This document shows positions 22,844-47,324 of a stretch of 64,000 bases of DNA, piece by piece. Every line of letters starts with the position of its first letter. Within the stretch, counting starts at the first letter, position 1. The stretch is from an uncultured Gammaproteobacteria bacterium (lineage in GTDB: Bacteria > Patescibacteriota > Microgenomatia > Levybacterales > GWA1-39-11): NCBI GenBank assembly GCA_964537315.1, contig CAZIAP010000002.1:43237-107236 (forward strand). The letters are read 5' to 3'. Under the pieces are notes generated by a model. That model was not told where the DNA came from. It did not search any database and was given only the letters and a program-made list of their open reading frames with translations. A program made the translations under genes and the position numbers.

Positions 22844-22997
22844 AAAAAAGACGTTTAGTTAAGTAGCTTTTCCACATATTCAGATGACATACACAATGAG
22901 ATATGATACTATTGCTAGACTGTAAGATTGTTGTGTTAGTCAGTATTGTATTTTTTAAGTAATTTTAAGACACACAACCATTTAACTGTTTTATCAT

Positions 22998-25428: not shown

Positions 25429-25959
25429 TTAACAACCCAAGGGCATTGGGTTGAACTCTGTATTAGTATCTTTAACAGACTGAGACGTGAATGCGCTTAA
25501 GTAAAATACTAGCGGTAAGTAGCAAATATCATTTTGATTAATGCCTTCCTTATTCAAGTAATCTTGAACTTCTTCCTTTGCTTGATTGATGTCAGTAGTA
25601 AGAATTTCTGCCATGAACACATCAGGTGATGCAATATATTCCAATCTATATTTGGCAGTTTTGTGAACAATACCACTTGTATTATTCAGTCTACCAATTA
25701 TTGATTGTCTTGTAGATCTTCCTTGCTCAGATAATTCCTGACGGTTTTGAATAACATCAATCGTTTTTCTTTTGGCCTCAGTGTTATAGGAGACGTTTTC
25801 TCTAATTGCCTTTCCTTGAAATGTTGGGACTGGCGTGGGCTGAGTAGGTGAATCATCAGGCAAGTCCTGTTTACTTAAATTCATGTAAACAACAATTACT
25901 ATACAAGTAATAATAAATACTCCAATGATGGCAAATAATACAGTTACTTTCTTATTCAT
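25429..25959 (-). CDS. Hypothetical membrane-anchored protein
   Basis: 176 aa with an N-terminal TM and a GGGGAGGAAA RBS upstream. No known domain. Confidence 0.4.
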   Translation of the reverse strand: MNKKVTVLFAIIGVFIITCIVIVVYMNLSKQDLPDDSPTQPTPVPTFQGKAIRENVSYNTEAKRKTIDVIQNRQELSEQGRSTRQSIIGRLNNTSGIVHKTAKYRLEYIASPDVFMAEILTTDINQAKEEVQDYLNKEGINQNDICYLPLVFYLSAFTSQSVKDTNTEFNPMPLGC

Positions 25960-28640
25960 CTAGCGTTTCCTCCCCACAAATGATCAGCGCATGCCCAATA
26001 TTCCCACTGCCTTCCGATAGTGACCAAGTATTTATTATAGTTTATCGCGTTTGTTGTTTGTTTTCGCCAATCCACGTCGCCATGGTCAAACTCTCCGTTT
26101 CTACCTCTACCCATTTGGTAAAGACCCCATGCGCCAACTGGGTCAGGTGTCCCAATACTTTCATGAGACGCGTAAGTATTAGGATTATAACCTGGGGCTT
26201 CGCAAGGAATGATATTAAAGAACCACTCATCTGCATGTTGAGGGTCCAGATCCTTAAGTAAAGTATACAGCTTATCTTTATCGCTCGGACGTCTGTTTGT
26301 AAGTAATGAGCAGGATGGGTCTCCGAAGTTTGCTCCTGTGCCATCTTTGTGATAAGGATTATTAAGATCGTAATATCCTTCACAAGTCTCGCTATTTGCA
26401 GGTGTGTCGCCTCCGGAGTGTATAGGAGTACTAGCACCGACTTCTTCAGCCCAAGCTTGATTTTCGACATAAAAATCTGTATTTAAAGGACGAATAGTCA
26501 GGAAGAAAGTTTGAGATTTGACTTGCCCAGGTGAGCCACCATTAAAACTTCCTGTATAAGTTTCTGCTACTGCCTGCATTCTATTTGAAAATCTCTGTTG
26601 GTTGTCTCTGTAATAGCTCCCCCAACTTTCCATAGTGGCTCTCCAGTTGTCTTGCCTTGCAATATCTCCTGCAACTTCAAGGGCATTATTTATAGCGTTA
26701 ATCGCTGGGTCCATCAGAAGTATGGCTATTAGTTGTTGTGCTTGAGCTTCTGCAGCAGTGGTTGGTCGTTGAGTACCAGGTGTTCCAGGTCTTCCTGCTT
26801 GTTGGAGTATTTCTTCAATTGATTTTGCAGGAAATGTAGATGGATTTGTGATACCACCTTCATCAATTACTCTTTGTCCGACTCGTTGCACGGTTGCTGC
26901 ATCGACTGCGCCATAAACCGCCATGAAGTCTTCGGCAAGGTGGTCGACGACTTGTGCGACTTGAACCCCTCCTACTTGCCAATCTCCAGAGTTGAAGCCA
27001 CCTATACAACCTGCATTGATATTGTTACGGCTTAATTCTTGAATGTCATCGCAGTTCCATGAGTAAGGATTTGCTCTTGATCCTTCAATTGCCATAGTCC
27101 ATATTACTGCAAGAAACGGATCAACATATTTTGGATCGTTGTTAGGCGCTTTAGAGAGTATATATGTTTGGTATTGATTAATTAAACTCCCAAGACGGTT
27201 TGCGTTTGCAATATCTTCATTAGAATAAACTGCATCAGATTCTCCACTCGGAGGGAGTAGATTATACGGTGATTGAGTATATTTATTAATATCAATGGTT
27301 TCAGATGAGGGTCGTGGAAGTTCCGGACCAATTATTGCCTGGTTATCATTAAGCGACCATCTGATTCTCGTGACATTACCTAAAGAATTTTCATCTGGAG
27401 TATAGTTTCCGGATGCGCTTACGAACTCTGTGCCAGGCGGAATAGTGTCATAAATCATAACATTTCCAGTCCCGTTATAAGAGACGTTTATCGTGTACAT
27501 AATATCGTCGCCATTTGCAACTTGCGCGGGCGCAGATTTGCTTAAGGTAATTCTTTGAGACGCATCAGGTACAGAAGCAGGAGGTGGAGATGGTTGGGCA
27601 ATATAATAGTCATCGTAGTCAGATTGTCCAGTACTAGTTAAGATGAAAATGAAAAGAATAAGCAAAATAATTATCGCAACAACTACCCAGAACCATGGAC
27701 TTGCTGCAAGAGGAGCAACACGTGCAGCCATTGAGGCAAGTCGAATTCCTTTTCCCATTCTTTGTATACGAGAAAATCTCCCCAGAGAGTTCGCTCTTCT
27801 TCTGGCTTTAGCTCTAATGTTTCTTTGAATATGTTCTCTTGTAAGTCTAGGATCCATTCTTTGTCTAATTGGTGAGGTTGGCATGGAGGGTCGGCTAGGA
27901 TGCGGTGATTCAGATGGGAGAATTCTTTGTTTGACAGTATTGATGGTTTTGTCTACTGCTCTTTGTACAATATCTTGGATCAAACTAGAAGGATCATCAG
28001 TAGGATAGTTGCTAACCTTGTTATCTATTTCGTCCCAGGATGTTGGTTCTATTTCTTCTGGGGGCGTGAATAACGGATGGTTTTTGGCGTAAGGTATATA
28101 ATAGTCTGCTTTTTCAGGAAATGATTTGTTCTTAAAATCTGCAATTGTCTCTTTGTATCTTTGTTTAAGTGTGTCATTTTTTTCTTGTACTGAACCATAT
28201 GTACCTTTTTTAAGCCTTTCAATATGATCTTTTGCTTTCTTCCAATACCTAACTACAGTTGGATCTTTGTCAGGATTGGGTGTAAAGTGTCCTTGGCTTT
28301 TATCACCATGTATGCCTTTTTTAAGATACTTCTGGTAAACATCCGGATGATTTGCTCTCATCTGAGCCTCTGCTGCAAAGATTGCATGATCGTGGGTTCT
28401 TTGATCACGGATTTTCTGCAAACCCTGTAGTGTGGGAAGATTACTTTTGTTAGGAGCTTGTTGCTTAAACCGTTCTTTTTCGCTCGAATAGTACTTTAAA
28501 AATTGTGGATCTTCGTAGAGGTTTAGTGCTGGAAGTTGATAGTCATTTTTAAAGACATTAAGCAATTCCCCTTCAGGAATAGGGGATCCATTAACAAGTT
28601 TTTTCAAGCTCTCAGGTAGTATTGAACTCTCATTATCCAT
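25956..28640 (-). CDS. Large bitopic surface protein (894 aa) with a DUF11-like repeat
   Basis: About 300-aa basic N-region, TM (WFWVVVAIIILLILFIFIL), then a roughly 560-aa C-region containing DIMYTINVSYNGTGNVMIYDTIPPGTEFVSASGNYT (conserved-repeat/DUF11-like). Overlaps the virB4-like gene by 8 nt. Confidence 0.5.
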   Translation of the reverse strand: MDNESSILPESLKKLVNGSPIPEGELLNVFKNDYQLPALNLYEDPQFLKYYSSEKERFKQQAPNKSNLPTLQGLQKIRDQRTHDHAIFAAEAQMRANHPDVYQKYLKKGIHGDKSQGHFTPNPDKDPTVVRYWKKAKDHIERLKKGTYGSVQEKNDTLKQRYKETIADFKNKSFPEKADYYIPYAKNHPLFTPPEEIEPTSWDEIDNKVSNYPTDDPSSLIQDIVQRAVDKTINTVKQRILPSESPHPSRPSMPTSPIRQRMDPRLTREHIQRNIRAKARRRANSLGRFSRIQRMGKGIRLASMAARVAPLAASPWFWVVVAIIILLILFIFILTSTGQSDYDDYYIAQPSPPPASVPDASQRITLSKSAPAQVANGDDIMYTINVSYNGTGNVMIYDTIPPGTEFVSASGNYTPDENSLGNVTRIRWSLNDNQAIIGPELPRPSSETIDINKYTQSPYNLLPPSGESDAVYSNEDIANANRLGSLINQYQTYILSKAPNNDPKYVDPFLAVIWTMAIEGSRANPYSWNCDDIQELSRNNINAGCIGGFNSGDWQVGGVQVAQVVDHLAEDFMAVYGAVDAATVQRVGQRVIDEGGITNPSTFPAKSIEEILQQAGRPGTPGTQRPTTAAEAQAQQLIAILLMDPAINAINNALEVAGDIARQDNWRATMESWGSYYRDNQQRFSNRMQAVAETYTGSFNGGSPGQVKSQTFFLTIRPLNTDFYVENQAWAEEVGASTPIHSGGDTPANSETCEGYYDLNNPYHKDGTGANFGDPSCSLLTNRRPSDKDKLYTLLKDLDPQHADEWFFNIIPCEAPGYNPNTYASHESIGTPDPVGAWGLYQMGRGRNGEFDHGDVDWRKQTTNAINYNKYLVTIGRQWEYWACADHLWGGNAR

Positions 28641-31191
28641 GGTTTATCGATCCGGAGGGAGGCGGTGTTCCAGAAGGTTTCGGAGTCTGAGGGGTTGGTG
28701 GTGGTGCAGGATTCGGAAAATTAGACGCAGTTGGCATTTGTGAACGTGCCATATTCGCAGTGTGGTAGGTGGCTTGCCCTCCAGAGTTGTTCATAACGGG
28801 TGCAGCTTGTCCTGGAGCTTGTGGTTGAGGCGGCATAGGCTGTTGTGGTGGCGTATTTGGTTGTTGAGGCTGCTGAGTCTGTTGAGCGGGAATAGTGTTT
28901 GCATTAATAGATGACATGTCTGCAGGTGCCTGCTCTATAGTAGGTGGTTGTACGGTTGGTTGGGTGGGTGGAGTCGGGGCTTGGCTACCTGCAAAACCCA
29001 TAGGTCGGTCTATTGCAAGTTCAGGCGCAGCCTGTGGAGCTATTTGTTCGTGTGTTTCCTCTTGTGGGGTAGGAGTAGAGATATCAGGAATTGGTGCCTC
29101 TTGTCCTGAACCAGACGGATCAGGTGAAGCTGCGTCATTTTTTTCTTGCTGCTCTAAAAGATCCTGAGGTTTTGAAGTGATCAGATCGTACTCGAATTGG
29201 GAAGCGATAAACTGAGCAGAGATATGATTTTGTCCAGCAAAAAGCAACCCTTCTCCAACTTGCGCAGTTAGTAAAAATTGCTTCTCACCTTCTGAAAGGA
29301 AAAATGCTTTTGCGAGAGCCTCAACACCTGAGGTACCTTGTTTAAGTAATATCTGAATTGAGGAGTTAGAAACAATAGCTTTTCCATAATCATTATTCAA
29401 AAAATCTTCAATATCTTGTGTAAGAGTTGTCATACCCAGATAATATTTTCGAGCTCGTTTGGCGATTCCTTGTAAAAAGCTTGCTGAATCCGGATACTTC
29501 ATCATGTACCAAGCCTCATCAACGATGAGCAGTCGTTTTTTTAGCTTAGTACGAACACGACTCCAGATAAAGTCTAAGATGACGTGCATTGCAATCGGTC
29601 TTAAAGCATCTTCAAGTTGTTTAATAGAGAAAACAGTTAGCTGACTGCGAATGTCATAGTTAGTTTGAGCATTGAGAAGCCCTGCAAAACCTCCTTTGAC
29701 GAACTTTTCCAATCTAAATGCAAGTTCTTTTGCTTCTTGTTCTTCCATATTCAACAGAGTTTTGTACAAATCTTCTAAAATTGGTGGCTCTTTATCATAT
29801 GTAGCAGGGTCAGGAGTTATGCCTTTTTGTTTATATACAAGGACGAGCGACCTATCAAGGATGGCTTCCTGAGTAGGAGTCATCTCTCCAACCATGGTTT
29901 TAAGAAGTCCGTGTAATGAAAGAATTTTAATGCCAAGTTGAGCATCCGTTCGGTCTTCTGAAAGAAGAGCAAATGGATTGATTGCCACCTCTGAGTTTTT
30001 CGAAAAGTTAATATATTCTCCGCCAAGCGAAGCACACAGGGTTCTATACTCGTCTTCTGGGTCAATGATCAGGATCTCTGCGTCAAACATCATTTGTCGC
30101 AAGATCTCAAGTTTTACTAGGAAAGACTTACCCGAACCGGACTTACCGAAAACTACTTGGTTAGCATTCTCAAAAGAGAATCTATCGACGATAACCAGAG
30201 AATTATTTAATGTATTAACGCCATAAAGAATCCCATTTGGTTGTGATATTTCATATGATGTAAACGGAAAAGTGGATGCCACAGATGTAGTGTCCATATT
30301 TCGGGTGATGAACAACTTGTCTGACCCATAGGGCATAGTGGTTTTAAACCCTTCTTCCATTTGTAGAGTTGCTGATTTCATAAGCAACATGTTTGAGGCA
30401 AGCAGAGTCTGCAATTGTTTGGATTTTTCTTCCAGTTCGTTAGGATTGTCAGCGGTTATAGTTACATATAGTCCAAACTGATAAAAACGTTCTAGTCCTC
30501 GAGCTAATTCCTCGCGTAAAGCAATCGCGTCTTCAAGAGATGCCTGAACTTTGGGATCTGGTTCCAGACCTGCTTTGTAATCGGCATCTAGAGTTGCTTC
30601 CATTTCTGCTATCTTGCGTCTGAGATTTGAGAGTACATCTTTGCTTTCGACAGGGTAAATAAACATGGATATGTTCATAGTCTCTTTGTGATCTATAAGA
30701 ATTGAGAGCCAGTTTGGAGAAACTTCGCGTGGATAATCAGCCACAAAGAAAGTCCTAAAATACCTATCTCCAACCCGTACGTGCTTAAAGTCAACTTCTA
30801 CCGACGGAGGGGCAATTACATCAGCAAGCGAAACAGAGCCTTGTTTTAAAGCATCAAGCGTAGCTCTCTGAGCAGTTGCTGCTTGTTGGGGTGTGGTTCC
30901 ATTTGGCATGACTACAGCCTGTCCAATATTTGGAGCTTGTGGTTGAGTAGGAGTAGCAGGTGCTTGAGCAGGCGCTGGTGGAGGTGTATTAAGTACGGAT
31001 TGAGGCTGTGCGGGCATTGTAGGTTGTGCTTGAGGCATTCCTTGCCCTGAGACTTGTTGTGGTTGTTGTACCGGTATACTTCCAGCAGGTTGAGTTGGTA
31101 CACCATTAGGAAAAGCGGTACCACCTTGATTCACGGAAGGCGTAGCAGGTTGTTGAGATTGTTCTGATTTTTTATTAAATATGTTAAACAT
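28633..31191 (-). CDS. virB4: VirB4/TrbE/CagE-family type IV secretion ATPase with long P/Q-rich low-complexity N- and C-terminal extensions
   Basis: DFKHVRVGDRYFRTFFVADYPREVSPNWLSIL (CagE_TrbE_VirB N-domain). Walker A VVFGKSGSGKSFLVK. Walker B KKRLLIVDEAWYMM. About 120 aa N-terminal and about 200 aa C-terminal stretches are Pro/Gln/Thr/Ala-rich. Confidence 0.8.
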   Translation of the reverse strand: MFNIFNKKSEQSQQPATPSVNQGGTAFPNGVPTQPAGSIPVQQPQQVSGQGMPQAQPTMPAQPQSVLNTPPPAPAQAPATPTQPQAPNIGQAVVMPNGTTPQQAATAQRATLDALKQGSVSLADVIAPPSVEVDFKHVRVGDRYFRTFFVADYPREVSPNWLSILIDHKETMNISMFIYPVESKDVLSNLRRKIAEMEATLDADYKAGLEPDPKVQASLEDAIALREELARGLERFYQFGLYVTITADNPNELEEKSKQLQTLLASNMLLMKSATLQMEEGFKTTMPYGSDKLFITRNMDTTSVASTFPFTSYEISQPNGILYGVNTLNNSLVIVDRFSFENANQVVFGKSGSGKSFLVKLEILRQMMFDAEILIIDPEDEYRTLCASLGGEYINFSKNSEVAINPFALLSEDRTDAQLGIKILSLHGLLKTMVGEMTPTQEAILDRSLVLVYKQKGITPDPATYDKEPPILEDLYKTLLNMEEQEAKELAFRLEKFVKGGFAGLLNAQTNYDIRSQLTVFSIKQLEDALRPIAMHVILDFIWSRVRTKLKKRLLIVDEAWYMMKYPDSASFLQGIAKRARKYYLGMTTLTQDIEDFLNNDYGKAIVSNSSIQILLKQGTSGVEALAKAFFLSEGEKQFLLTAQVGEGLLFAGQNHISAQFIASQFEYDLITSKPQDLLEQQEKNDAASPDPSGSGQEAPIPDISTPTPQEETHEQIAPQAAPELAIDRPMGFAGSQAPTPPTQPTVQPPTIEQAPADMSSINANTIPAQQTQQPQQPNTPPQQPMPPQPQAPGQAAPVMNNSGGQATYHTANMARSQMPTASNFPNPAPPPTPQTPKPSGTPPPSGSINHG

Positions 31192-31266: not shown

Positions 31267-31884
31267 TTATAATATTATATTTGTTATGTCATCTGACTGA
31301 AAATCTAGAGAAACTGTTTCCTGGTTATATAGTTCGTAGAGTACTTTTGCCACCTCGCTAGATTCAAGCGGTCGTGCAGATAGACCCATACGTTGAATCT
31401 GGCTTAAAACTCCGGCCTGCTTGCTATTCACTGCTTCTTTAATGCGGTCTTGCAGGGTCATCTTTTTGTTGGTAATTGGTCCAAGTTCAAGAGAAGAGAA
31501 GGGAATTACAACATAGATTTTTTTATCGAGCAAATTTTCACCTTTTACCAGCTCTTGGATGAATTGCTTGTACATAATAAGGTGCTCTGATAGATTTGGA
31601 TCCTGAGTTTTCTCTATTTTTGATTCTAGCATAGATAGATACTCGGTCATGTCAACTTTTTTAGAAACGATAAAAATCTGGATAGCAGATGAAAGTGAGT
31701 TCAGAAATGACATGAATCCGTATATTCGCGCATTCTGTTCCTCTGTTGAAAGTAGGAAAAAATTGACAGATGATACTTCAAGAATTGAAGCCGCATTGTT
31801 CCCTTTTAAGAACAAGATACCGTCTTTAATATCTTCTACTTCTGTAAATCCTTGTGTTGTTGATTGTATTTTTGCTTTAGCCAT
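31267..31884 (-). CDS. Hypothetical soluble protein (205 aa) in the T4SS-like locus
   Basis: ORF with no TM and no recognisable motif. Confidence 0.4.
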   Translation of the reverse strand: MAKAKIQSTTQGFTEVEDIKDGILFLKGNNAASILEVSSVNFFLLSTEEQNARIYGFMSFLNSLSSAIQIFIVSKKVDMTEYLSMLESKIEKTQDPNLSEHLIMYKQFIQELVKGENLLDKKIYVVIPFSSLELGPITNKKMTLQDRIKEAVNSKQAGVLSQIQRMGLSARPLESSEVAKVLYELYNQETVSLDFQSDDITNIIL

Positions 31885-31917: not shown

Positions 31918-33234
31918 CTATGCAGCAGGCATAGTTGGACTAGGTGTTGGAATTGGTGTATTTCCAAATAATTCTCTGCGTAATTTTTCCCGTTGATCAA
32001 TTGATATAATCTCAAGCGGGTTGAATATTTCGCCTTTCATTTCTATTTGAACATTCTCAAACTCATGTTTTTTTCCTGGATCGTCAAAGTACATCTTGTA
32101 TGTTCCGTTAGGGAGTGGAGTGGCAGAGATAAACTGTCCAAGAGCGTTTGTCTTGAATGCACGGACAGGGATTTCATTGCTGTCTACGACCTCTACTAAT
32201 ATGTTTTGTAAAACTTTTCCACGAGGGTCTTTAACTATTCCTAGAACTATATTAGGTATATCCGGCAAAGTTGGGAAACCCGAGCTTAAGTTAGATTGAG
32301 GAGTGACACTTTTTACTGTAGCTGCTTTTGGAGCCTCTTTCTCTACAGGAGTGACAGCTGGACGTTGTGATACTTGTTTTGCTTGCTGCATAACCTGCTT
32401 TTTTTGAAATGTAGCCGTTTGACCAAGTGCTTCTGCCAACTTTTGTTCTAGATCTCGAATTTTTGCTTCCAAGTCTGCTGTCTTTCCAACACTTTGTTCT
32501 GCAACTCTAATATCTTGAATTTCTTTTTTAATTTCTGCTATGTCATCCGCTGGCTTAGGTTGTGGGGCAGGAGCAGGCTTTACTACATCTGTAGGTAAAG
32601 AGTTTTTCTGCACTATTTTTTCTGGTACAGCTGGCATAACCGGTTTTACAGCCTCTCTTTTAATAATTTTTGGTTGAGAAGGTGGAGGAGTTACTCGTCT
32701 GGTTTCATTTGCGAGAGGATTAGGTGTAGATACAGACATATCTGGATTATCAAAAGAAGCTTTTAGATTAGAAAAGTACTGCATTTCCCGGTCGTCAGGT
32801 CGGAAATAAGAGCTGCGGAGCGCGCTAGCGAGCGCTTTTCTATTTGCCTCATTTTTTGATTGTTGAGGAACTGGTTGTTGAGTGGCTGAAGCCTGTACTG
32901 CTTTTGCAGGTTGTAAGAACTGATACTTTGTGAGGTCAATGCCCTGTTTACGATATACGTACTGATTTTCTTTTGGTATGGAGCGCGCAAAATATATCAG
33001 CATTTTATCTAGAGGTCTACCACCTACAGGTACAAAGGCCAGTGCCACTCCTGCTGCTGCAAAAATACCCATCAATGGAACCATCAAAAACGGGTGACTT
33101 TTATTCATGGCGACAAAAGTAAGCGTGCAAAAAATTCCAGCTACAACTACATATCCAAATTGTTTAACGGTCATGGAGCCGATTATCTTGAATTTAAAGC
33201 CTGTAATGTCCTGAGGAATTGGATGGTTTTCCAT
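31918..33234 (-). CDS. Membrane protein with two N-terminal TM helices, a Pro-rich linker and a C-terminal carboxypeptidase-regulatory-like beta-sandwich
   Basis: TM pair (GYVVVAGIFCTLTFVA; LMVPLMGIFAAAGVALAFV), a P/A/Q-rich coiled region, then a C-terminal VLGIVKDPRGKVLQNILVEVVD...NALGQFISATPLPNGTYKMYF (CarboxypepD_reg-like). Start taken at ATG 33234; the track's 33279 is a TTG. Confidence 0.45.
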   Translation of the reverse strand: MENHPIPQDITGFKFKIIGSMTVKQFGYVVVAGIFCTLTFVAMNKSHPFLMVPLMGIFAAAGVALAFVPVGGRPLDKMLIYFARSIPKENQYVYRKQGIDLTKYQFLQPAKAVQASATQQPVPQQSKNEANRKALASALRSSYFRPDDREMQYFSNLKASFDNPDMSVSTPNPLANETRRVTPPPSQPKIIKREAVKPVMPAVPEKIVQKNSLPTDVVKPAPAPQPKPADDIAEIKKEIQDIRVAEQSVGKTADLEAKIRDLEQKLAEALGQTATFQKKQVMQQAKQVSQRPAVTPVEKEAPKAATVKSVTPQSNLSSGFPTLPDIPNIVLGIVKDPRGKVLQNILVEVVDSNEIPVRAFKTNALGQFISATPLPNGTYKMYFDDPGKKHEFENVQIEMKGEIFNPLEIISIDQREKLRRELFGNTPIPTPSPTMPAA

Positions 33235-33394
33235 ATAATCAAGCGTATAACGTGAAAATTTTATATTCAAGCATCTCAAACTAGGTCAAAGAGTCACAAA
33301 AATTGTGAAAATAAGACTTTATAAGCGATTAAAAGTTAAAAATGCATTAATAGTTGCTACATTATTGACACGATTCTATACTTAAGTTAGATAC

Positions 33395-34099
33395 ATGGAG
33401 GAATATATTTGGTTAATTCTAATTTCTGAGCTGGTTTTTCTTTTTTTTACTTCACGCTATATCTCCAAAGCTTTATTTTCTCTTAGTTATAAGGTATTTA
33501 GGAAGCAGAGCATTGCAATACGATTTGTAGCATTAATTTTCTTTCCCGGTACAGTAATTCATGAACTTGCACATTACTTGATGGCAAAGATGCTTTTTGT
33601 CAGAACAGGTAAGGTAGAGTTGACCCCCGAGTTGCATGGTAACGGTTTAAAACTGGGAAGTGTGCAAGTTGCTAAATCAGATATTCTTAGACAATTTTTG
33701 ATCGGTGTTGCACCTTTACTATTTGGATCAGCTTTGTTAGTACTTGGAACTTACTATTCTTTGCCGAAGATAATAAACTTTTCATTAGATACCTCATACC
33801 TTATACTTGCTACTTTATACCTATATGTTATTTTCGTAATCACCAACACGATGTTCTCAAGTAAAAAAGATATGGAAGGAGCGTTGGGGTTATTTATTTT
33901 TATTGCTTTTGTTACTTCAGTAATATTTGTTGCCGGGAGAGAAGAGTGGTTAATCGAACCTGTTCGGTTTATAAATGGGAATTTAATGGTACAGCTTTAT
34001 AGCAAGCAAGCAGCTCAATTATTACTAATTCCGGTTGGCATTAACTTTACAATTTTACTTCTTAATAATCTTGTGAGATTTCTTAGAAAAAATAATTAG
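33395..34099 (+). CDS. Polytopic membrane protein with an intramembrane HExxH (M50B/DUF3267-like putative metalloprotease)
   Basis: FFPGTVIHELAHYLMAK sits inside a TM helix, with about 6 TM segments. It is the only plus-strand gene inside the minus-strand T4SS block, next to the pilin-like genes. Confidence 0.4.
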   Translation: MEEYIWLILISELVFLFFTSRYISKALFSLSYKVFRKQSIAIRFVALIFFPGTVIHELAHYLMAKMLFVRTGKVELTPELHGNGLKLGSVQVAKSDILRQFLIGVAPLLFGSALLVLGTYYSLPKIINFSLDTSYLILATLYLYVIFVITNTMFSSKKDMEGALGLFIFIAFVTSVIFVAGREEWLIEPVRFINGNLMVQLYSKQAAQLLLIPVGINFTILLLNNLVRFLRKNN

Positions 34100-34114: not shown

Positions 34115-34459
34115 CTAGTTTGTCTCAGTATCAGGAACAATGACGTTTTGATCTACACCTAAAAGGCCGAAAAATCCATTAAATAACGCAAATGATACCG
34201 CAATAAATACAAAACCGATAATTGCAAAAGTTAAAGTTTTTTTAGCACCAGAAATCTTTTCAGGGTCACCATTAGCCGTGATTAGCTGAATACCGCTCCA
34301 TATAATGAAAATTAATGCAACTGCACTTGATAAAACAATTGCTGCATTAATGATGTTGGAGAAAAGCGGCCATATACAGGATAGAGTTGCAACCTGAGTA
34401 CCGGAAGCAGTTTCATGTAAGCACCCAGATTCATCCCAGGGACGAGTAAATAAAGCCAT
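34115..34459 (-). CDS. VirB2/TrbC-like pilin-family small membrane protein (paralog 1)
   Basis: 114 aa: AAIVLSSAVALIFIIWSGIQLITANGDPEKISGAKKTLTFAIIGFVFIAVSFAL. This is a two-helix hairpin with a charged loop, shared with the next three genes. Confidence 0.5.
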   Translation of the reverse strand: MALFTRPWDESGCLHETASGTQVATLSCIWPLFSNIINAAIVLSSAVALIFIIWSGIQLITANGDPEKISGAKKTLTFAIIGFVFIAVSFALFNGFFGLLGVDQNVIVPDTETN

Positions 34460-34517
34460 ATATTGTTTATAACAAAATCAGAAGATGAAAACTAGTAGTT
34501 TGGATTAAAGAATGAAT

Positions 34518-34979
34518 TTATTGACCTGAGAGCCTAGCGTTCTCACATTCACTTAATGCTTGACCTTCTCTTAGGTTAAGATAACACTCAAGCGTTGGAA
34601 TGTTAGGATTTAATATATCTCCAGCTCCGAGTAGTCCCATTACAAAATTAAGAATAACTACTGCTAACAGCAACACTACAAGACCTATAATTGCTGCAAT
34701 TATATGGCCTCTAGCTTCAGAAACCTTTTCCTTATCTCCGCCAGAAATGATCCATTTAATAGCTCCCCAGAGTAGAAAAATTAGTGCTGCAATAATACCA
34801 ATTGCAATTAATATAATAATTATCCAACGAACAACAGTGTTAACTGTAGCAACAGGACCTGGGTCGACAAGTGGAACGTCACCTGGAACGATATCGTTCT
34901 GCGCAAATACTTGAAATGAAGTAAATAGATAAAGTGCTGTTGCAGATAATATAGCTGTTGATTTTTTTAGAAATTTCAT
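34518..34979 (-). CDS. VirB2/TrbC-like pilin-family protein with signal peptide (paralog 2)
   Basis: Signal peptide MKFLKKSTAILSATALYLFTSFQVFAQ. Then VVRWIIIILIAIGIIAALIFLLWGAIKWIISGGDKEKVSEARGHIIAAIIGLVVLLLAVVILNF. Start placed at ATG 34979; the longer track ORF overlaps the neighbour. Confidence 0.5.
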   Translation of the reverse strand: MKFLKKSTAILSATALYLFTSFQVFAQNDIVPGDVPLVDPGPVATVNTVVRWIIIILIAIGIIAALIFLLWGAIKWIISGGDKEKVSEARGHIIAAIIGLVVLLLAVVILNFVMGLLGAGDILNPNIPTLECYLNLREGQALSECENARLSGQ

Positions 34980-35025
34980 ATCTAACTGATTATGGACATA
35001 TATGGAATTAGTTGTCAAGAGGTAA

Positions 35026-35394
35026 TTAAACGGGTGATAGCTCTCCGCCACCGCCACCTGGTCTGGACGCTGACTGAAACACATTTATCCCTAATAGTCC
35101 TCCTATGAAATTCATAATGACAAGAGAGAGTATAATAACAACGAGTCCAATAATAGAATATATGATTGTTCTGCGAGCGCTATCAAGTTTTTCTTTATCT
35201 CCCCCTGATGTGATCCATTTTATAGCACCAATAATAAGAAAGATAAGTGCAGCAATAATTCCCACACTAGTTAAAATAATAATTACCCAGGAAATTATGC
35301 CAGCTAATCCACCCTCACCAGTTGTGGGTACACCTTCAGGGGGTACGACTTCTTGTCCACCGGGTAGAGTCAGAGAAAGTAGTTTTTCCTTCAT
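35026..35394 (-). CDS. VirB2/TrbC-like pilin-family protein (paralog 3)
   Basis: IISWVIIILTSVGIIAALIFLIIGAIKWITSGGDKEKLDSARRTIIYSIIGLVVIILSLVIMNF is near-identical in motif to paralog 2 (AIKWI[IT]SGGDKEK). Confidence 0.5.
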   Translation of the reverse strand: MKEKLLSLTLPGGQEVVPPEGVPTTGEGGLAGIISWVIIILTSVGIIAALIFLIIGAIKWITSGGDKEKLDSARRTIIYSIIGLVVIILSLVIMNFIGGLLGINVFQSASRPGGGGGELSPV

Positions 35395-35486
35395 AATATT
35401 AAGTTAAGCTTTGTTTGGGGAAAAAGTCAATATTGATGGGTGTAGGCGCCCGCTTTTTGAGCAGGCGCCAAGTAAACTAAATACGA

Positions 35487-36098
35487 CTAGTAGGAGCTAG
35501 CTAAGGTCAAAGAGATCTTCTCGAAGTCATCGAGGTAATCTTCAAACCACGCAGGTCGAGCGCTGAGTTCCAATCTCACCATGTAAGGAGATCCATCGAA
35601 ACTGGTTGTCGGGAAGAATACAAGAACATGTTTTGTTATCCCGTTTGACCAAGATTTGTCATAGGAGAATTTCCAAGCAATACCTTCCTGCGGATTAAAC
35701 GCTCCATGACTTATGACGTTACTTAGAGTATCAAACCCTGCAAATGTTTGGTGATAGCAGTCAGCAAACTCTGGTAGAGATGTGTCTGAATTCCAGACAC
35801 AGTGGTCCCAGACAAGTTTGCTGCAATAGATGCTAACATTGTCTTCAAGTTCCCCAGCAGGAACTATCAAGTTCCCTTCGCTGTTTACGATTGACCAAGC
35901 CGATGGATATCTCACTGTCGCTAGGTTGCTACAGTTGATACGACCGTCCAGAGTCAGATCTGGAGATGATTGAGAACTCTGTTGAGCAGGCTTTGATGTC
36001 TGAACATCGCTGTTCTCATTCTCAGAAGCACTGCTATCGTTTCCGCAAGCTGCGAGCAATAAACCGGCGGCTAGAACAATCAATACGAACAGTTTCAT
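35487..36098 (-). CDS. Hypothetical lipoprotein
   Basis: MKLFVLIVLAAGLLLAACGNDSS gives a lipobox (LLAAC). A GGAAGG RBS lies before ATG 36098. No known domain. Confidence 0.45.
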   Translation of the reverse strand: MKLFVLIVLAAGLLLAACGNDSSASENENSDVQTSKPAQQSSQSSPDLTLDGRINCSNLATVRYPSAWSIVNSEGNLIVPAGELEDNVSIYCSKLVWDHCVWNSDTSLPEFADCYHQTFAGFDTLSNVISHGAFNPQEGIAWKFSYDKSWSNGITKHVLVFFPTTSFDGSPYMVRLELSARPAWFEDYLDDFEKISLTLASSY

Positions 36099-36293
36099 GG
36101 TTCCCAGCCTTCCTGATAGCAAGCGATGCTTAGAAAGATTTGCGCCTGCAGAAAGAAATAATAGAGCAGAATCCTTTCTAGTCGTGTTAAAGTACTGATG
36201 ATTCTGATTACATACAACAGTAACAGTTACATCTTAACCGGGAATTATAGCATAAAAAAGCGCTAAAATCAATACTATGGGACTTATTGATTG

Positions 36294-38036
36294 CTAAGAA
36301 CCTCGCTCAAATCCAGGTATCTGTAAGATGTCAATACCTATAATTTCAAGAATAGCAATGGACAAAATCAAAAAGATGAGCCCGGTAACTGATGAAGTTA
36401 TTAGTTCACGAGAACGACTAATCTTTTCTTTATCTCCTCTTGAAGTAAGAATTATATATCCTGCATAAAGAATGCGTGCAAACGCAGCCATAATACCTAT
36501 TGTTAATAAGAAAGATCCTGCATCGCGTATGAACTCTAAAGGGTTAGTTGAGAATGCAAAAATTGCAGTTTCATATTTCCCGCACTGGAATCGAGTTGGA
36601 TCTGTCTCATCAACATCTTCTCCCTTTGCATTCACCCATTGGGCGCAGGGTAGGCCGGAGTCAAGCTGTTGCTGATTAATTGCATGTTGTAGTTCTGACA
36701 TATTTGGATCTGCTTCTATCCATCTTGTGTCAACGTATGCATTGCCTTCACTATCGATATTGATGGGAATTTCATATAAAGTGAACCCACCCTGACAGAG
36801 GTCAAGATGACGGTATCGATTCGCAAAGCCAGTATCGTTAATTTGCTCGTTAATTTTTAGAATATACTTTCCTGTTGGAAAAGCGCTATTTCCATTACGT
36901 TCATCTGCAATTGTTTCTGTTACTCCATCTTCACCTATAACAACACATCTTTCTCCTGTACTGTTATGAATGAAACCAGATTTGTAGTCGTTATCAACCC
37001 CCTCAAGTACAATTTGATAATTATTGCGTTTTTCTCCTCCTGCTGTTTGTCGTCCAGAAAGAGTAACTGTGATTGGGTTAGATATTTCCACAACTCCTGG
37101 GGGTTTATCAGAATTTTTAAAGAGAATTCTACTAGTGGATCCTGTGTCTTTATTGAATCCGAACTCCAGACCTTCATGAATAGTTACGTCAGGATAATAG
37201 TGATGTACATAAAACTCAGCTAAAGCAACTAGGACAGGTGCTTCATTTTTTACAATATAAGCTCCAATTCGGTAAATGCTTCCGGCATGAAACCAGTCTC
37301 CGCTATCACATTCTGTTTTTAATTTTTTATCTTTGTTACCGCATACTGTTATATCGTCGTTATTTGAAATTCCAGCTTCTTCTCGACTGATTAGTAACTT
37401 TCCATTTCCTTTTAGCACATTGTTTTCGCATTCTTGTTGATCAGAAAGAAGGCAGAACTTGGCACCATCAGGTAAATTATTAAAACGAATCTTTACATTT
37501 TCCTCGTTGCTATCAATGAGGCCATCAGGGCTTATTATCTCTGCTGAAGGTGATTCTCCAGATATAGTGCTGTTTGTGTTGTTTTCTGAGGAAGAACCAT
37601 CATTAGAATCTTGTTCATTGTTTTGCGGGGCGGAAATAGTGATAGAAAGATTCCCTGAAGCTTCACATAGTGTGTTTTCCTCCGTGCCACTAACACGAAC
37701 AGATGCATTAGTACCGGGCTCAATCGGAGGAACAACAAGATTGTAATTTCTCTGTGATGTATTATAAGTACTTGCTGTTCCTAGTGAGTTTCCAGAGCTG
37801 TCGATGAACTCGAAATAGTAACCAGTACCTGATTGGACTTCTGCATTCGGATCTATGGTTGCTCCAACTCCCATTGTTTGTCCTGAAATAACAGGGGTAC
37901 TGTCCAACCTATTTAATGAAATTGTTGGAAGTTTTGTACATGCAGCAGCTGAAACTTGGGGAATATCTCTAAATAAGAAAGCTAGAATAATGAGTGAAAT
38001 AACTCCTAGAGAAGCAAAAATAACAACTTTTCTCAT
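36294..38036 (-). CDS. Large surface protein (about 580 aa) whose C-terminus is the same VirB2/TrbC-like membrane hairpin (paralog 4, pilin-domain fusion)
   Basis: N-terminal signal/TM (VVIFASLGVISLIILAFLF) and a roughly 500-aa Ser/Asn/Gly-rich extracellular region. C-terminus FLLTIGIMAAFARILYAGYIILTSRGDKEKISRSRELITSSVTGLIFLILSIAILEIIG. The start (ATG 38036 vs TTG 38072) is uncertain. Confidence 0.5.
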   Translation of the reverse strand: MRKVVIFASLGVISLIILAFLFRDIPQVSAAACTKLPTISLNRLDSTPVISGQTMGVGATIDPNAEVQSGTGYYFEFIDSSGNSLGTASTYNTSQRNYNLVVPPIEPGTNASVRVSGTEENTLCEASGNLSITISAPQNNEQDSNDGSSSENNTNSTISGESPSAEIISPDGLIDSNEENVKIRFNNLPDGAKFCLLSDQQECENNVLKGNGKLLISREEAGISNNDDITVCGNKDKKLKTECDSGDWFHAGSIYRIGAYIVKNEAPVLVALAEFYVHHYYPDVTIHEGLEFGFNKDTGSTSRILFKNSDKPPGVVEISNPITVTLSGRQTAGGEKRNNYQIVLEGVDNDYKSGFIHNSTGERCVVIGEDGVTETIADERNGNSAFPTGKYILKINEQINDTGFANRYRHLDLCQGGFTLYEIPINIDSEGNAYVDTRWIEADPNMSELQHAINQQQLDSGLPCAQWVNAKGEDVDETDPTRFQCGKYETAIFAFSTNPLEFIRDAGSFLLTIGIMAAFARILYAGYIILTSRGDKEKISRSRELITSSVTGLIFLILSIAILEIIGIDILQIPGFERGS

Positions 38037-38080
38037 ATATTCATCATATCCATACACGTATAATGAAAGCAAGTTGAAAT

Positions 38081-39388
38081 TTATTCTGAGAACTTAAGCC
38101 CTTTGCCTTTTACTGTGAGGATGTATTGTGGATTATTTGGGTCTGATTCTATTTTTTTACGCAGCCTATAAACTATCTGATCTAGAGCTTGGTCAGTAAC
38201 ACCTTCTTGAGTCTTTGAGTCAGTCCATACTGCGTTTATAATGCCTTCTTTTTCTACAGTTTTACCTTTATTAACTAACAAATGTTTAAGTAAGCGAAAT
38301 TCAGATGGTGTAAGGTTATCAGAAATATCGACATCACCTTTATATATCTCGTTAAGCTCTTCATTATGTGTAAATTCTTCTTTTTTTTCTTTAATGGTCG
38401 ATAAAAAAGTCTCAAAAATAGGAATGGATATTTTTCCATTGTTTAGTAGTCCAACCAACTCAAGAAACTTTGCTTCGTCTGTATGATTCTTAAGATTTTT
38501 TACGATATGTTGTTCTTCAGTCGTGAGGTAATTCCAGATCTCTGTTAAAGCACCTCTCATTTGCCTGTGGTTGAGTAGGTGAGCTTCAAGATCTTTAGGA
38601 GTTTCGTTTTCTGATAAAAATGCCTCATATGCAATTTTCACTAGCTTACCGTGTCCGCCTGTTAGCTCCATGAGCTTTTCACGAGCATCTTCATTTTTTT
38701 TGCCTGCAACTTGCTCGATGTAGTTGAGCCTAAAGTCAGGCTCATCAGGATGAGACATCTTCATAAATATTGAGTTGCCGATTAAAAATTCATAAAACTC
38801 AGCGAGAGTAGAGGTGTCAATCAGTAAATCGATAGGTCGAGATAGGGCGAATACACAAGAAAATTTATATTTTGCCCGATTGCGCAGAATCTTTAGATTA
38901 ACGAAAAATTGATCTGTTAAATCTTGTGAATATTGTTCAAGCCGATCGATTAAAAAGACTACAGACATATCTTTTTCAAGTGCCAGATAGTCAATAGATT
39001 TTTTTAAAGCCTGGAAAAGTACTAGCTCATCGTTAAACTCAATGGCTTCTTTTAAGAAGGCATTTATTTGAGTACTTTCAGTAGTCATTCCGCGCTCACT
39101 AAGTGAATATCCAAGAGAGATGAGTATAAATTTTGTGACGTCAGATAGAGGTCTGCTCCTAACCTCAGAAAAATCCATATATACAAAATGATATTTTTCT
39201 TGATTTTCTAAATGGTATTCACGTACTTTGCGGTTGTAAGCCAGCAACCTCAAAAGTCGACTTTTTCCAACTCCCGGCAATCCTAATACTTGGCTTGATG
39301 CACCTTTTTTTACGAAGCCAATAACTTTTGAAATTTCTTCATGCAATGAATTTTCAGGGTAAAGTGATTCGAAATATTTGGGTTCCAT
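38081..39388 (-). CDS. P-loop NTPase (AAA/STAND-like) fused to a C-terminal OmpR/PhoB-type winged-helix DNA-binding domain
   Basis: Walker A VLGLPGVGKSRLLRLL, Walker B MSVVFLIDRLE. C-terminus LTPSEFRLLKHLLVNKGKTVEKEGIINAVWTDSKTQEGVTDQALDQIVYRLRKKIESDPNNPQYILTVKGKGLKF matches trans_reg_C (LTPKEFxLL...R--L---VWG------R-VDVHI-RLRKKLE-DP--P-YI-TVRG-GY-F). Confidence 0.6.
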   Translation of the reverse strand: MEPKYFESLYPENSLHEEISKVIGFVKKGASSQVLGLPGVGKSRLLRLLAYNRKVREYHLENQEKYHFVYMDFSEVRSRPLSDVTKFILISLGYSLSERGMTTESTQINAFLKEAIEFNDELVLFQALKKSIDYLALEKDMSVVFLIDRLEQYSQDLTDQFFVNLKILRNRAKYKFSCVFALSRPIDLLIDTSTLAEFYEFLIGNSIFMKMSHPDEPDFRLNYIEQVAGKKNEDAREKLMELTGGHGKLVKIAYEAFLSENETPKDLEAHLLNHRQMRGALTEIWNYLTTEEQHIVKNLKNHTDEAKFLELVGLLNNGKISIPIFETFLSTIKEKKEEFTHNEELNEIYKGDVDISDNLTPSEFRLLKHLLVNKGKTVEKEGIINAVWTDSKTQEGVTDQALDQIVYRLRKKIESDPNNPQYILTVKGKGLKFSE

Positions 39389-39424: not shown

Positions 39425-39790
39425 TTAAAGCTGCTTATCATTTTTATTAGCTGTATGAATTATAGCATTGAAGATCAGGTTGAGCTCTTTTGCTTCTTGG
39501 ATAATTTTTTCGGCGTCACTTGCTAAATCTGGAGAAGCATGTTTGATCATAAGTAGCCAGTGAATTGTTTCTTTTGATTCTTTCTTACATATTCCAAGTT
39601 TATGCTTGAAATCTAGTCGACTTTCAGCATTATCAGCTTCGCAATAGTTTGCACCAACGCTAGTAGAGGACCTAACTAATTGGGATATGAGAGGGAGAGT
39701 AATAGCAGTTCGTGGAACTGTTTTACAGAATGCAATTGTGTTTTCCCCAAACTTGCGTGTTCTTTCTTCAAGATCATATTTTCTGATCAT
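39425..39790 (-). CDS. Four-helix-bundle protein (TIGR02436; formerly '23S rRNA intervening-sequence protein' family)
   Basis: MIRKYDLEERTRKFGENTIAFCKTVPRTAITLPLISQLVRSSTSVGANYCEADNAESRLDFKHKLGICKKESKETIHWLLMI matches the family hallmark (Y-L-ERT--F---I--------------QL-RS-TSIGANY-EA----S--DF--K--I--KE--ET-YWL-L). Confidence 0.65.
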   Translation of the reverse strand: MIRKYDLEERTRKFGENTIAFCKTVPRTAITLPLISQLVRSSTSVGANYCEADNAESRLDFKHKLGICKKESKETIHWLLMIKHASPDLASDAEKIIQEAKELNLIFNAIIHTANKNDKQL

Positions 39791-39917: not shown

Positions 39918-42900
39918 ATGAAAGAACAATTGACACGCTCACCGAATCTAACGTACTCTAATAGTATGGAAGATAGTGGAGAAAAAAATATTTATCACGC
40001 GGAAGATAAAATTCAAGATAAGTCACCGAAAGTATCAAAGATTTCAAGAATAACTCAGCAAGAAGAAAAAGATAGGATTGATAAAATTATTAGTGGTGCT
40101 CCTGCATTACATCAAGAACCCTTACGGCAATCTCTTTACGAAGCATATTTTACAGCTTCATCCACCGAAGCAGAAGACTCTTCTCGTATAGACGAAATAA
40201 GAAAAGAACTTGATGAGACAGTTTCAGATTCCGACGAGAACAATGAAGATATTATGGAAAGATTGGGAAGAGCTGAACAAGAATTAGGGAGAAATCTTAA
40301 TGCTCAAGAAAAAGCAGCCATAATTGCAGCTCATAATGTGGGCGAAAATGAGCAGGGAAAAGACGGATCAGAGGCAGGAATAAATAACTATACATTTTCT
40401 CAGTTGAGAGAAAAAGCAAAAATTCTTAAAGGGGATGACGAGCAGAAAGGTTTTTCTAAAGAGGAAAGACGTAAATTGATGGAAGCAGGTATTGTGGGAG
40501 AGGAGAGAGATAAACAGGATTTGCGTAGTACACCTGAAAGGTTAGTTGAGTTAAGTGAAGCTCAACTTCGTGAGCAAGAAGCTATTAGAAAAAATACTGA
40601 TACTATGGTTCAGCAGCTAAGCGAATTACTAAGCATATCTGCAGAAGAACGAGATATACTGCGTAAACTTAGTGATGAACAAATGGAAAGGCTTATTCAA
40701 TCAATTGAGTTTAGCAAGACAACCTTTGAAGAATATATTGAAAAGTCAATTCGACAAGGACTTGACGATCCTAAAGAAAGAAAAACTAATGAAGTTGTAA
40801 TGGAAGCGATTAGTAAAGTAAGTGCAGAGGAGTATGAGACTTATCGTAATGCAGAATCAAAAGTAAGATCTGAGAGAAATCGTGTAATATTCTCATATGC
40901 CAATGCAGTGAAAGATAATTTTAAAGGAGGAGAATACCTAGAAGATGATGAATGGAGCGGAACTGTGGAAGAGTATATCAGGAGGGAAGTCGATCGGGTA
41001 GGAGAAGTACTAGATGATTTAGAAGATAAATTTATTAGTGGTGATTTAAACGATCTAGAAGTACAAAGAGAACTAAGGAATATTTCAAAAGATAGTGAGC
41101 GTATCCAAAACGAAGCAAATATTTTAGCAGGAATAGACCCTCAAGAAAGAAGAGGTAGAGGAAAAGCTGTTAAAAATATTGAAGAATTAATGAAATTTAT
41201 AATGGAGCTTCATCCGGATTACTCAGAAGAGGGTAACTATCCATTAATATACCCTCCTGAACATGAACAAGCAGGAGAAATTAATCAAGGAAATTTTATT
41301 CAGTGGATTCGCGACCAGTTGTCGCATTATCATAACCAAGACGCTGATAACCCACAGGTAAACTTTTTCGGTAATATCAGTGTGGAAGTTGAATCCCAAG
41401 GCTATACGAGAACTGTTAATGTTTTACAGATGATCAATAATCCCGGCGTATTTTTTAAGAGCAAAAACGGACATGTCTTGAATGGTTTGAGAGATGAAGT
41501 TGAGCGCACGATATGGCAATACTCAACAAATCGCAATAATAGAATTGCATATTTTCAGTCAATGCCTCTTGACACCAAAATTGCTGATGTTGTTGCGGCA
41601 ATCAACTCAAATAATGCACTCACAAAGCCTGCATATGAAGGCAAAAGTCCTCTCTACTGGAATTTGACTCAATCTGAAAGATATGAAAACGAGACTCGTT
41701 TGGATGCACGGGTAGGAGAGGGTATAGTTGCTGGAACGATGATTTATTATGACATTACTGATTACGAAGCTCTTAAAAAACGTTGTGCACCAATCAAAGA
41801 TGCTGAAGGAAAAGACGATGTTTCCCCTCTTTTTGATTTAAATAAAATAAAAGCAGCAGCACAGAGTATTTTGATCTCTAATAAAAGACCGGATTATGAT
41901 AAATACTTTACAGAAGACACCTGGGCTGAGATTAGTAGTTGGTTTGATGACAACGGAGTGTTAAAAGATGGAAGTGGAGATAAGTGGATCAAGTTTTTTA
42001 ATCCTTATGAACCACAACAAGACACAAGGAAGCTCGAATTACTTCGCGCATTAATTGCTGAAGAGATCTCTAGAAGAACCGGTCTGAATAGTAATGCCGC
42101 AAAATATGCCGAGCAGTGGGCACAGTTTCAAATTGATTTCATGTTGATATCAGCTCGAGGTGGTGTAGGAGCTGCTGCGTATAACGGGGCTGAAAAAGGA
42201 CTTCGAATGCTTGAATATTATGAGCGTGCATGGAGTGATACTAAACCAGGTTTGGGTAACCCAAAAGCTTTAGGTTTACTTGTTGCGCCTGGAGTTGATT
42301 TTCTCATCGGCACTCAAGTTAGATCTTCAGAGTTTAAATTAGCGGAGGTAAGTAAGGCAACAGATTCTAAAGGAAACTTTAACAAAGTCAATATTGTAGA
42401 ATTTGATGAAAAGGGTGAACCGGTTAAGGTAAGCCATACACTTAAAGATAACCAAGAGGTACTTTACGTAGGTAGTAAAATTATTTCGAGCAAAACAAAA
42501 GGGGAGATAATCAGCTTCGAGGAACGAGAAAAAATTGCGGCATTTACCTTATTGGACGACAAAGAAGAAATTTTAGAAAATGCTGAAGTAAAAGAAAATG
42601 CTAATACTGGAGAGTTCACAGTATTCGTGAATGGTCAAGAATATAAATCGTACAAACCAAGCGAAGAAGATGGAAAATATACAAATCATTACGAATTGGT
42701 TGGGGAAAGAAAATATAAGATTACGAAACGTGAATGGCATTTTGATGATGCGCTTGGACTCAATACTAAGGATAAAAGAGTGGTTGTAGAAGTTGATGAG
42801 CAAGGAAACAGACGTTACTTAGGAGAGTTAAAAGAAAATGAGAGGGTAGATCTAGGAGGAAATACACTTAAGTCAATGCAAGAGGTGAGGGTACGGGAGA

Positions 42901-45844: not shown

Positions 45845-45906
45845 ATATATACAGTATGGGGGAATATTTGATACAAAGTCAACTTTTTTAAGCTTCAAAT
45901 TAGCTG

Positions 45907-47318: not shown

Positions 47319-47324
47319 ACAAAT

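Follow-up and report, generated by a model that had tools for sequence, protein, structure and literature searches.

The stretch of DNA considered here, called the window, comprises 64,000 nucleotides of contig CAZIAP010000002.1 (assembly GCA_964537315.1), positions 43,237-107,236, and all coordinates given below are positions within it. An earlier note, made from the sequence alone, had drawn attention to four tandem paralogs within the window that share a C-terminal two-helix hairpin, likened to the pilin module of VirB2/TrbC proteins, and had proposed that a common membrane or assembly module carries variable exposed domains. The four genes, all on the minus strand, encode one long protein and three short ones, called here P1, P2, and P3, and lie beside genes of a type IV secretion system (T4SS). 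With the one gene that interrupts them, they are laid out as follows.

Long pilin, 36294..38036 (-): 580 aa from the ATG at 38036; the open reading frame (ORF) reaches a TTG at 38072; signal peptide at about residues 1-30
Distal N-terminal beta-sandwich of the long pilin (predicted), 37617..37934 (-): about residues 35-140, hypervariable among relatives
Cys-rich conserved stalk of the long pilin, 36543..37559 (-): residues 160-498, predicted tandem FN3/Ig-like beta-sandwiches
Pilin module of the long protein, 36294..36542 (-): residues 499-580, made up of a helix, the loop TSRGDKEKISRSRE, a second helix, and an IPGF tail
Lipoprotein-like gene, not a pilin, 35487..36122 (-): 211 aa, lipobox LLAAC, between the long pilin and the three short pilins
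Short pilin P1, 35026..35394 (-): 122 aa, no signal peptide; its N-terminus, MKEKLLSLTLPG, fits the class motif MK.L.L..PG
Short pilin P2, 34518..34979 (-): 153 aa, Sec-type signal peptide (VFA|Q), longer C-terminal tail
Short pilin P3, 34115..34459 (-): 114 aa, no signal peptide; Cys pair in the N-terminal tail

All four genes are found where the earlier note had placed them, except that the long one probably starts further in. The listed ORF begins at TTG 38072 (592 aa) and the NCBI record has a 587-aa version, but the most likely start is the ATG at 38036 (MRKVVIFASLG..., 580 aa), preferred because it gives a signal peptide with a VSA|A cleavage site and agrees with the starts of homologues. 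The last 80-90 residues of the four proteins align as helix, charged loop, and helix, with the pattern (S/N)GGD(K/P)EK..(A/S)(R/K) in the loop between the two hydrophobic helices. The loop residues G, D, E, and K do not vary among the four modules, nor does the G in the second helix, and an invariant core, S.GD...AR...GL, is common to the long and short modules. A hidden Markov model (HMM) was built from the four C-termini and run against the 552 ORFs that the window has in its six frames. It picked out just these four proteins, with E-values of 6e-41 to 6e-32 (2.9e-35 for P1 and 6.5e-32 for the long protein), and the next match had E = 0.2. Since the window holds only these four copies, the module is there neither a product of chance nor a generic anchor of two transmembrane (TM) segments, as it would be if the motif were widespread in unrelated membrane proteins, an outcome that the note had itself foreseen.

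The three short proteins all pass the gathering threshold (26.6 bits) of Pfam family PF18895, T4SS_pilin, with scores of 40.1 bits for P3, 39.9 for P2, and 35.7 for P1. The sequence thus marks the module as a T4SS pilin module of VirB2/TrbC-like kind, from a known family with its own Pfam entry. The resemblance to TrbC/VirB2 proper (PF04956, threshold 27.9 bits) stays below threshold: P2 scores 21.8 bits (E 2e-4) and P1 14.2 bits, the other two give no match, and PF04956 is found at E<=0.01 in 10 of 55 relatives (best 9.1e-7). Searched with a profile of the four modules, the database yields 3638 proteins. The best 120 are all 100-155 aa in length and all carry PF18895, and several of them are named 'pilin' and come from Patescibacteria or Levybacteria; a protein identical to P2 (153 aa) is present as well. 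A tblastn search with the same 153-aa pilin against 72,556 plasmids gave zero matches. Each of the four proteins has two TM segments by hydropathy, with a net charge of +1 to +2 on the loop between them, so that hydropathy and charge together predict an outward position for the two termini and an inward one for the net-positive loop, a topology with which the extracytoplasmic Cys pairs are consistent.

The long protein is the unusual member of the set. A word-indexed search with it found a sole match, itself, and on that evidence it might have been taken for an orphan. This was overturned by an exhaustive phmmer search, which gave 5581 matches (the numbers here are of clusters at 50% identity), 935 of them at E<=1e-10 and 62 at E<=1e-30. 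Among the top 150, most are 400-680 aa in length, and their alignments run from about residue 150 through to the C-terminal end, stalk and module together; alignments with close homologues start at about residue 140-175. An alignment of 40 members of this long family contains invariant and near-invariant cysteines and the motifs VCGDG, DYFH.G..YR, RNNYQ.VLEG, LKINEQ.N, C.GGFTYY.IP, and DPN, the last followed by GY..MTSRGDKEKI..ARE.ITSAI.GLIFIILS..ILEIIGVDIL.IPGF. PF18895 is matched (E<=0.01) by 39 of the 40 sampled members, which share no other recurrent Pfam domain, and a homologue of 606 aa has already been named 'pilin' by NCBI.

AlphaFold models the full-length long protein with a mean predicted local distance difference test score (pLDDT) of 79.7 and the stalk alone (residues 160-500) with 83.9. 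In the model a signal helix precedes a beta-sandwich (39-134); a disordered linker then leads to a beta-rich region (164-496) and two C-terminal helices (499-531 and 536-570) of 33-35 residues each. Its fold relatives are FN3/Ig stalks, one of them from a Gram-positive pilus adhesin. The earlier note had described a Ser/Asn/Gly/Asp-rich extracellular region of roughly 500 aa; the ectodomain is indeed large, but the model makes of it more than a region of low complexity, namely a folded beta-sandwich stalk. The parts of the protein are very unequally conserved, as seen when each is sought in 223 long relatives.

Pilin module (500-580): detectable in 221/223, best identity 71%
Stalk (160-500): detectable in 143/223, best identity 41%
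Distal domain (24-140): detectable in 1/223, best identity 30%

The long protein thus belongs to a large conserved family, in which a signal peptide is followed by a hypervariable distal domain, a conserved Cys-rich stalk of FN3/Ig-like type, and the pilin module at the C-terminus. A conserved assembly module bearing a stalk and a hypervariable tip is the pattern expected of a receptor-binding surface protein.

A diversity-generating retroelement (DGR) was considered as the source of the hypervariable tip and rejected. Neither in the long gene nor in the rest of the window was a repeat of the template/variable (TR/VR) type found, no reverse-transcriptase domain was found among the window ORFs scanned against Pfam, and the only long direct repeats in the window are those due to the paralogy of P1 and P2 and to two VOC-family paralogues, without an adenine-specific pattern of mismatches. 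Nearby, a gene for a PF05635 '23S rRNA intervening sequence protein' (39425-39790, minus strand) adjoins the gene upstream of the long pilin, and homologues of it stand beside or within the pilin arrays of other loci (L020, L059, L062, L065, L066, and L070 of the set described next). PF05635 is the four-helix-bundle family that includes the Avd proteins of DGRs.

One genome per species was scanned for related loci, yielding 80, nearly all of them from Levyibacteriota, other Microgenomates, or unclassified Patescibacteria. The order of genes recurs: a regulator, a long pilin (200-741 aa), three short pilins (medians of 110, 144, and 108 aa), an optional HExxH gene on the opposite strand, and then PrgI, TrsD, VirB4, and so on to dnaN and dnaA. 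The long ORFs begin with a signal-peptide-like N-terminus in 72 of 78 cases and have the module at the C-terminus or no more than 15 residues from it in 66 of 78, and most of their ectodomains have at least 6 Cys. Many of the loci, for example L002, L005, L006, and L010, come from records of metagenome-assembled genomes titled 'uncultured Gammaproteobacteria' or 'Pseudomonadales', with the same cluster and the same synteny. Those titles look taxonomically wrong.

The short pilins correspond position by position across loci. When the window was compared with the 38 loci having the pattern of one long pilin plus three short ones, the best match across loci lay at the same position of the array for P1 in 39/39 cases, for P2 in 39/39, and for P3 in 38/39. 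Each position also has its own signature. Among the orthologues inspected, those at position 1 have the N-terminus MK.L.L..PG and no signal peptide, and those at position 2 have an AxA signal peptide and end in an IP(S/T)L tail. At position 3 a Cys pair stands just before the first helix in 16 of 16 orthologues scored; in the window it lies in a tail of about 30 aa, so the N-terminus of the 114-aa P3 is not empty, as the earlier note had it. P1 and P2 of the window are 56% identical (75% DNA identity over 101 nt). Judged from these comparisons, the four paralogues are ancient, position-specific orthologous classes. The idea of a common module with variable exposed domains hence fits the long protein, with its gradient of conservation, but not a free modular mix across the array.

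The rest of the cluster identifies the machine that the pilins would serve.

AAA/STAND ATPase fused to an OmpR-type winged helix, 38081..39388 (-): Trans_reg_C 68.8 bits; directly upstream of the long pilin
HExxH membrane protein with six TM segments, 33395..34099 (+): putative intramembrane metalloprotease, distantly M50 (site-2 protease)-like; gene divergent from those of the pilins
PrgI/VirB3-like protein, 31918..33279 (-): PF12666 39.7 bits; C-terminal CarboxypepD_reg-like domain; syntenic in related loci
TrsD-like protein resembling a split N-terminal part of VirB4, 31267..31884 (-): NCBIfam TrsD E 9.5e-10, below cut-off; syntenic
VirB4-type ATPase, 28633..31191 (-): TraG P-loop 114 bits, AAA_10 57.7 bits
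Single-TM protein of 894 aa with a DUF11 repeat, 25956..28640 (-): downstream of VirB4, synteny kept
dnaN and dnaA, 21412-24098: end of the T4SS cluster

On the strand of the pilins, the order after them is PrgI/VirB3-like protein, TrsD-like protein, VirB4, the 894-aa protein, and three small single-TM proteins. VirB4 lies 2.9 kb from the pilin genes, much as the earlier note had estimated, and the cluster is that of a T4SS: chromosomal, of Gram-positive type (MPF-FATA-like), and belonging to a Patescibacterium akin to Microgenomatia/Levybacteria.

Tandem arrays of VirB2-like pilin genes, which seemed unfamiliar to the earlier note, have already been published (2023 and 2025) and are not new. 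The survey by Quinonero-Coronel et al. (2025; PMC12102498) counts 441 VirB2 arrays, each of 2-11 genes in tandem or with one non-pilin gene between; they are most abundant in Microgenomatia and Saccharimonadia, and the T4SS is often near dnaA. The window locus is such an array, with four pilin-module genes at 34115-38036, one interposed gene, and VirB4 at 28633-31191. Wang et al. (2023; PMC10633639) found a T4SS and its series of pilins essential for the epibiotic growth of Southlakia, each pilin gene of the array being individually required in transposon sequencing (Tn-seq); the Southlakia array (SEML1_0014-0019), as it is presented there, has short members only. A 2025 review of nomenclature (PMC12857230) highlights the same VirB2-like array. 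The array in the window shares with those described the protein family, the tandem layout, the PrgI/VirB3-TrsD-VirB4 neighbors, the proximity to dnaA/dnaN, and the enrichment in Microgenomatia. It differs in what has been made of it: in the portions of those papers on which this comparison draws, arrays are seen as small divergent pilins, and the long member, the order of four classes, and the positional orthology are not described. Nor did the literature searched contain a description of a long ectodomain-pilin family or of a fixed four-class set. What is new is that the fusion of long ectodomain and pilin constitutes a large conserved family with a hypervariable tip and that the array has a fixed make-up of four orthologous classes.

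The classical VirB2/TrbC/TraA proteins of the T-pilus, F-pilus, and RP4 have the same two hydrophobic helices around a short charged loop and the same (predicted) placement of both termini outside. Classical VirB2 is likewise encoded beside VirB3 and VirB4, and P2 of the window has a cleavable signal peptide as it does. The differences are that the window proteins are sub-threshold for TrbC, that their host is a monoderm, and that they fall into four classes where the classical systems have one major pilin. We know of no classical VirB2 bearing an N-terminal ectodomain of about 470 aa, as the long pilin of the window does. In all solved conjugative pili the loop lies in the lumen and both termini are on the outer surface.

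A further parallel, in architecture, is PrgF, the small two-TM pilin of a monoderm MPF-FATA-type machine. A preprint by ter Beek et al. (2025; 10.64898/2025.12.18.695078) infers its topology experimentally, again with the loop in the lumen and the termini outside, shows that loop residues can be labelled from without, and finds no VirB5-like tip protein in the pCF10 system in a screen limited to proteins of 50-150 aa. Gram-positive plasmids appear to use one pilus-forming protein, whereas the window encodes four classes; long fusions would escape a screen of that size range. The integrative and conjugative elements (ICE) of Mycoplasma (NF045849, Mbov_0395; NF045848/NF045889) also combine short hairpin proteins with a longer protein that embeds the hairpin, in a monoderm T4SS. 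There, however, the extension is C-terminal to the hairpin, and in the long pilin of the window it is N-terminal; the window pilins match the Mycoplasma NCBIfam models, among them the 'pilin-like conjugal transfer protein', with E-values of 2e-9 to 5e-3, all below the cut-offs. Finally, adhesin-type pilus subunits, such as VirB5 of T4SSs, FimH of chaperone-usher pili, GspK and the minor pilins of type II secretion systems and type IV pili, and RrgA/SpaC of sortase pili, pair an assembly domain with an adhesin. They have no sequence homology to the long protein, whose module is a hairpin of VirB2 type and not a VirB5 bundle, an Ig pilin, or a type IV pilin. No VirB5-type Pfam match was obtained for the long protein or for any cluster protein scanned. 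By analogy, the long protein may nonetheless work like VirB5, while not being VirB5 by sequence.

How might the four proteins work together? From the foregoing we infer the formation of a pilus, the assembly of the four into it, the placement of the long subunit, and the binding of a host. Each pilin would sit in the membrane as a two-helix hairpin, its termini outside and its charged GGDKEK..AR loop facing the cytoplasm. On the model of VirB2 and PrgF, the VirB4-driven machine would extract the hairpins and polymerize them into a pilus-like tube, the loops lining the lumen and the termini lying on the outer surface. P1, P2, and P3 would occupy shaft or minor positions. The long subunit would enter by the same assembly hairpin and extend outward an N-terminal rod of disulfide-stabilized FN3/Ig-like domains with the hypervariable end outermost. 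Since the termini are outside in solved pili, a stalk attached N-terminally to a VirB2-type hairpin would point away from whatever filament it was built into. Judged by established pilus geometry, there would be no room for an ectodomain of about 50 kDa on each subunit of the shaft, and the long subunit would be too bulky for a stoichiometric part in it. Most likely it would be present in low copy number, at the tip or on the surface, touching the host cell, and would have the part that VirB5, or a two-domain adhesin such as FimH, plays elsewhere.

Taken as a whole, the explanation we favor, by a modest preference, is that the four genes are a full set of pilins building one heteromeric structure from non-redundant classes, the long subunit serving as a low-copy, outward-facing adhesin. 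A bolder form of it is put forward only tentatively: that the long protein represents a type of subunit of T4SS pili not described before, a tip or surface adhesin that chooses the host cell, and that the three short classes are obligatory shaft or minor pilins. Several observations weigh against such an explanation. No pilus of a Patescibacteria T4SS has been seen so far, and no VirB6-like polytopic platform was recognized within the T4SS cluster. The long protein scores 15.4 bits against PF18895, below the cut-off. The similarity to classical VirB2 is weak: hhalign compared a 55-sequence profile of the family with VirB2 of A. fabrum C58 and gave a probability of 0.2 and E 0.3, not significant, and a profile search of PDB sequences matched no solved pilin. 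The long subunit is also not universal, since the essential pilin array of the cultivated Saccharibacterium does without one. Also, the loci were retrieved by a peptide pattern taken from the long-type module, which biases upward the frequency with which the long gene comes first (51/59).

It is unlikely, though this is the alternative that fares best, that no extracellular pilus is made at all, the hairpins being parts of the T4SS channel or of a short wall-spanning conduit and the long protein a tethered surface protein. A filament has been visualized for no monoderm T4SS, the 'pilus' of Gram-positive PrgF has been proposed to be short, and Mycoplasma ICE proteins of about 300 aa embed a pilin-like hairpin (NF045848 and NF045889, sub-threshold). 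A simple anchor, however, would not need what the long protein has, a module that is its most conserved part and that keeps the core of the short pilins, and four distinct classes seem excessive for a static ring in the membrane. Either way, the stalk and hypervariable tip indicate outward presentation, and the absence of a pilus would change mainly the reach of the structure.

The paralogues might instead be interchangeable major pilins, a repertoire for antigenic or host-range variation in which the long one is merely another variant. This was suggested by the 2025 survey (PMC12102498), which cites the analogy of the VirB2 paralogues of Bartonella and Anaplasma, reports a mean identity of 25% within arrays, and proposes adaptation to host strains. 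Arrays that range in size from 2 to 11 genes speak for it, as does the closeness of P1 and P2 in the window. But a repertoire of this sort predicts lineage-specific duplication and turnover; what is seen instead is a strictly positional orthology over 38 loci, terminal features conserved class by class, and a gene number and order fixed in the lineage, and Southlakia (PMC10633639) needs each pilin gene individually. We regard the repertoire as improbable. As for a generic two-TM anchor or a coincidence of composition unrelated to type IV secretion, hydrophobic hairpins do yield weak spurious Pfam matches (MatE, TctB, Cyt_bd_oxida_II) and some source databases mis-name these proteins as transporters, but the window-wide HMM search (E<=6e-32 in 64 kb against 0.2 for the next match), the above-threshold match to a curated Pfam family, and the invariable linkage to PrgI, TrsD, and VirB4 in related loci effectively refute it.

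The heteromeric pilus with a long adhesin, if it exists, would bear on more than one question. The T4SS of Patescibacteria is the sole T4SS shown to be essential for the growth of its owner, which takes place on a host bacterium. Monoderm T4SSs were long believed to be free of pili, and they have no identified tip adhesin. A pilin module with an outward stalk and a hypervariable tip is a concrete candidate for the element that makes contact with the host, and the long subunit would then fill the role of the 'missing VirB5' of monoderm T4SSs. The distal domain would be a determinant of host specificity that can be read from sequence, and so a marker of host range in uncultivated Patescibacteria. 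The fixed set of four classes suggests a heteromeric filament over the variation repertoire proposed earlier, and a pilus of obligatory classes would stand against the single major pilin of classical conjugative pili. Should none of this be confirmed, the locus is still a well-annotated case of a published gene array.

Some neighbors may take part in making or controlling the pilins. The gene for the AAA/STAND-Trans_reg_C protein stands upstream of the long pilin in most related loci, and its product is a candidate for a dedicated regulator of the pilin/T4SS operon. In many of the same loci a further gene lies divergently upstream of the regulator, encoding a protein of about 870-1730 aa; in the window it is a Glu/Lys-rich protein of 1395 aa (39918-44105, plus strand), without Pfam domain and without TM segment. 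Beyond it is a protein of 585 aa with about 9 TM segments (44141-45898, minus strand), without Pfam match.

The HExxH protein was proposed in the earlier note as a membrane protease that might process the pilins. Residues H56, E57, H60, and D159 are invariant among its homologues, and the motif HELAH lies within a predicted TM segment. Alone, the protein has no match in Pfam at E<=0.1 (M50 12.2 bits, cut-off 27.2), but a profile of its family matches the structure of the site-2 protease (S2P) MJ0392 with E 0.0038, over the HExxH region only, and its homologues match Pfam M50 in 9 of 18 cases (E<1) and M50B in 3 of 18 (best 1.9e-6). An M50-like intramembrane metalloprotease is a plausible identity. 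Of the 80 loci, 21 have the gene; among the loci whose sequence spans this interval, about half lack it. The protein therefore cannot be an enzyme on which pilin maturation always depends, and no processing site could be defined.

The lipoprotein-like gene within the array has no homologues in the 80 related loci (E<=1e-5), and matches of its 211-aa product in NCBIfam are limited to the N-terminal lipoprotein signal; it appears to be specific to the source genome. A scan of the array for promoters and terminators gave results at or below the background of shuffled sequence and permits no inference as to which pilin is the major one. A sigma-70-like site near consensus does occur at 34989-35018 (minus strand), 10 nt before the start of P2: TTGACA and CATAAT separated by 18 nt, with 11/12 matches.

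Other T4SS components lie at a distance. A coupling protein of VirD4/TraG type (58858-61281, minus strand), with T4SS-DNA_transf, TrwB_AAD_bind, and TraG-D_C all above cut-offs, is encoded apart from the main cluster, beside a tRNA-Ile gene; no relaxase domain was found among the part of the window ORFs that was scanned against Pfam. Adjoining the coupling-protein gene, about 24 kb from the pilin array, is the gene for a TraX-family protein (62031-62708, plus strand; PF05857 132.6 bits). TraX of the F plasmid acetylates the N-terminus of F-pilin, and the TraX-family protein of the window may be a pilin-modifying enzyme.

The tRNA-Ile gene, at 58738-58811 (minus strand) as called by ARAGORN, has the anticodon TAT (UAU). 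In most bacteria, AUA is read by a CAU tRNA modified with lysidine. Also within the window, 46863-50519 (plus strand) begins with the gene for NrdR, followed by one for a ribonucleotide reductase of class II type that has a TSCPD domain; after these come an AdoCbl-II riboswitch at 49818-49897 (38.1 bits) and the gene for a cobalamin adenosyltransferase.

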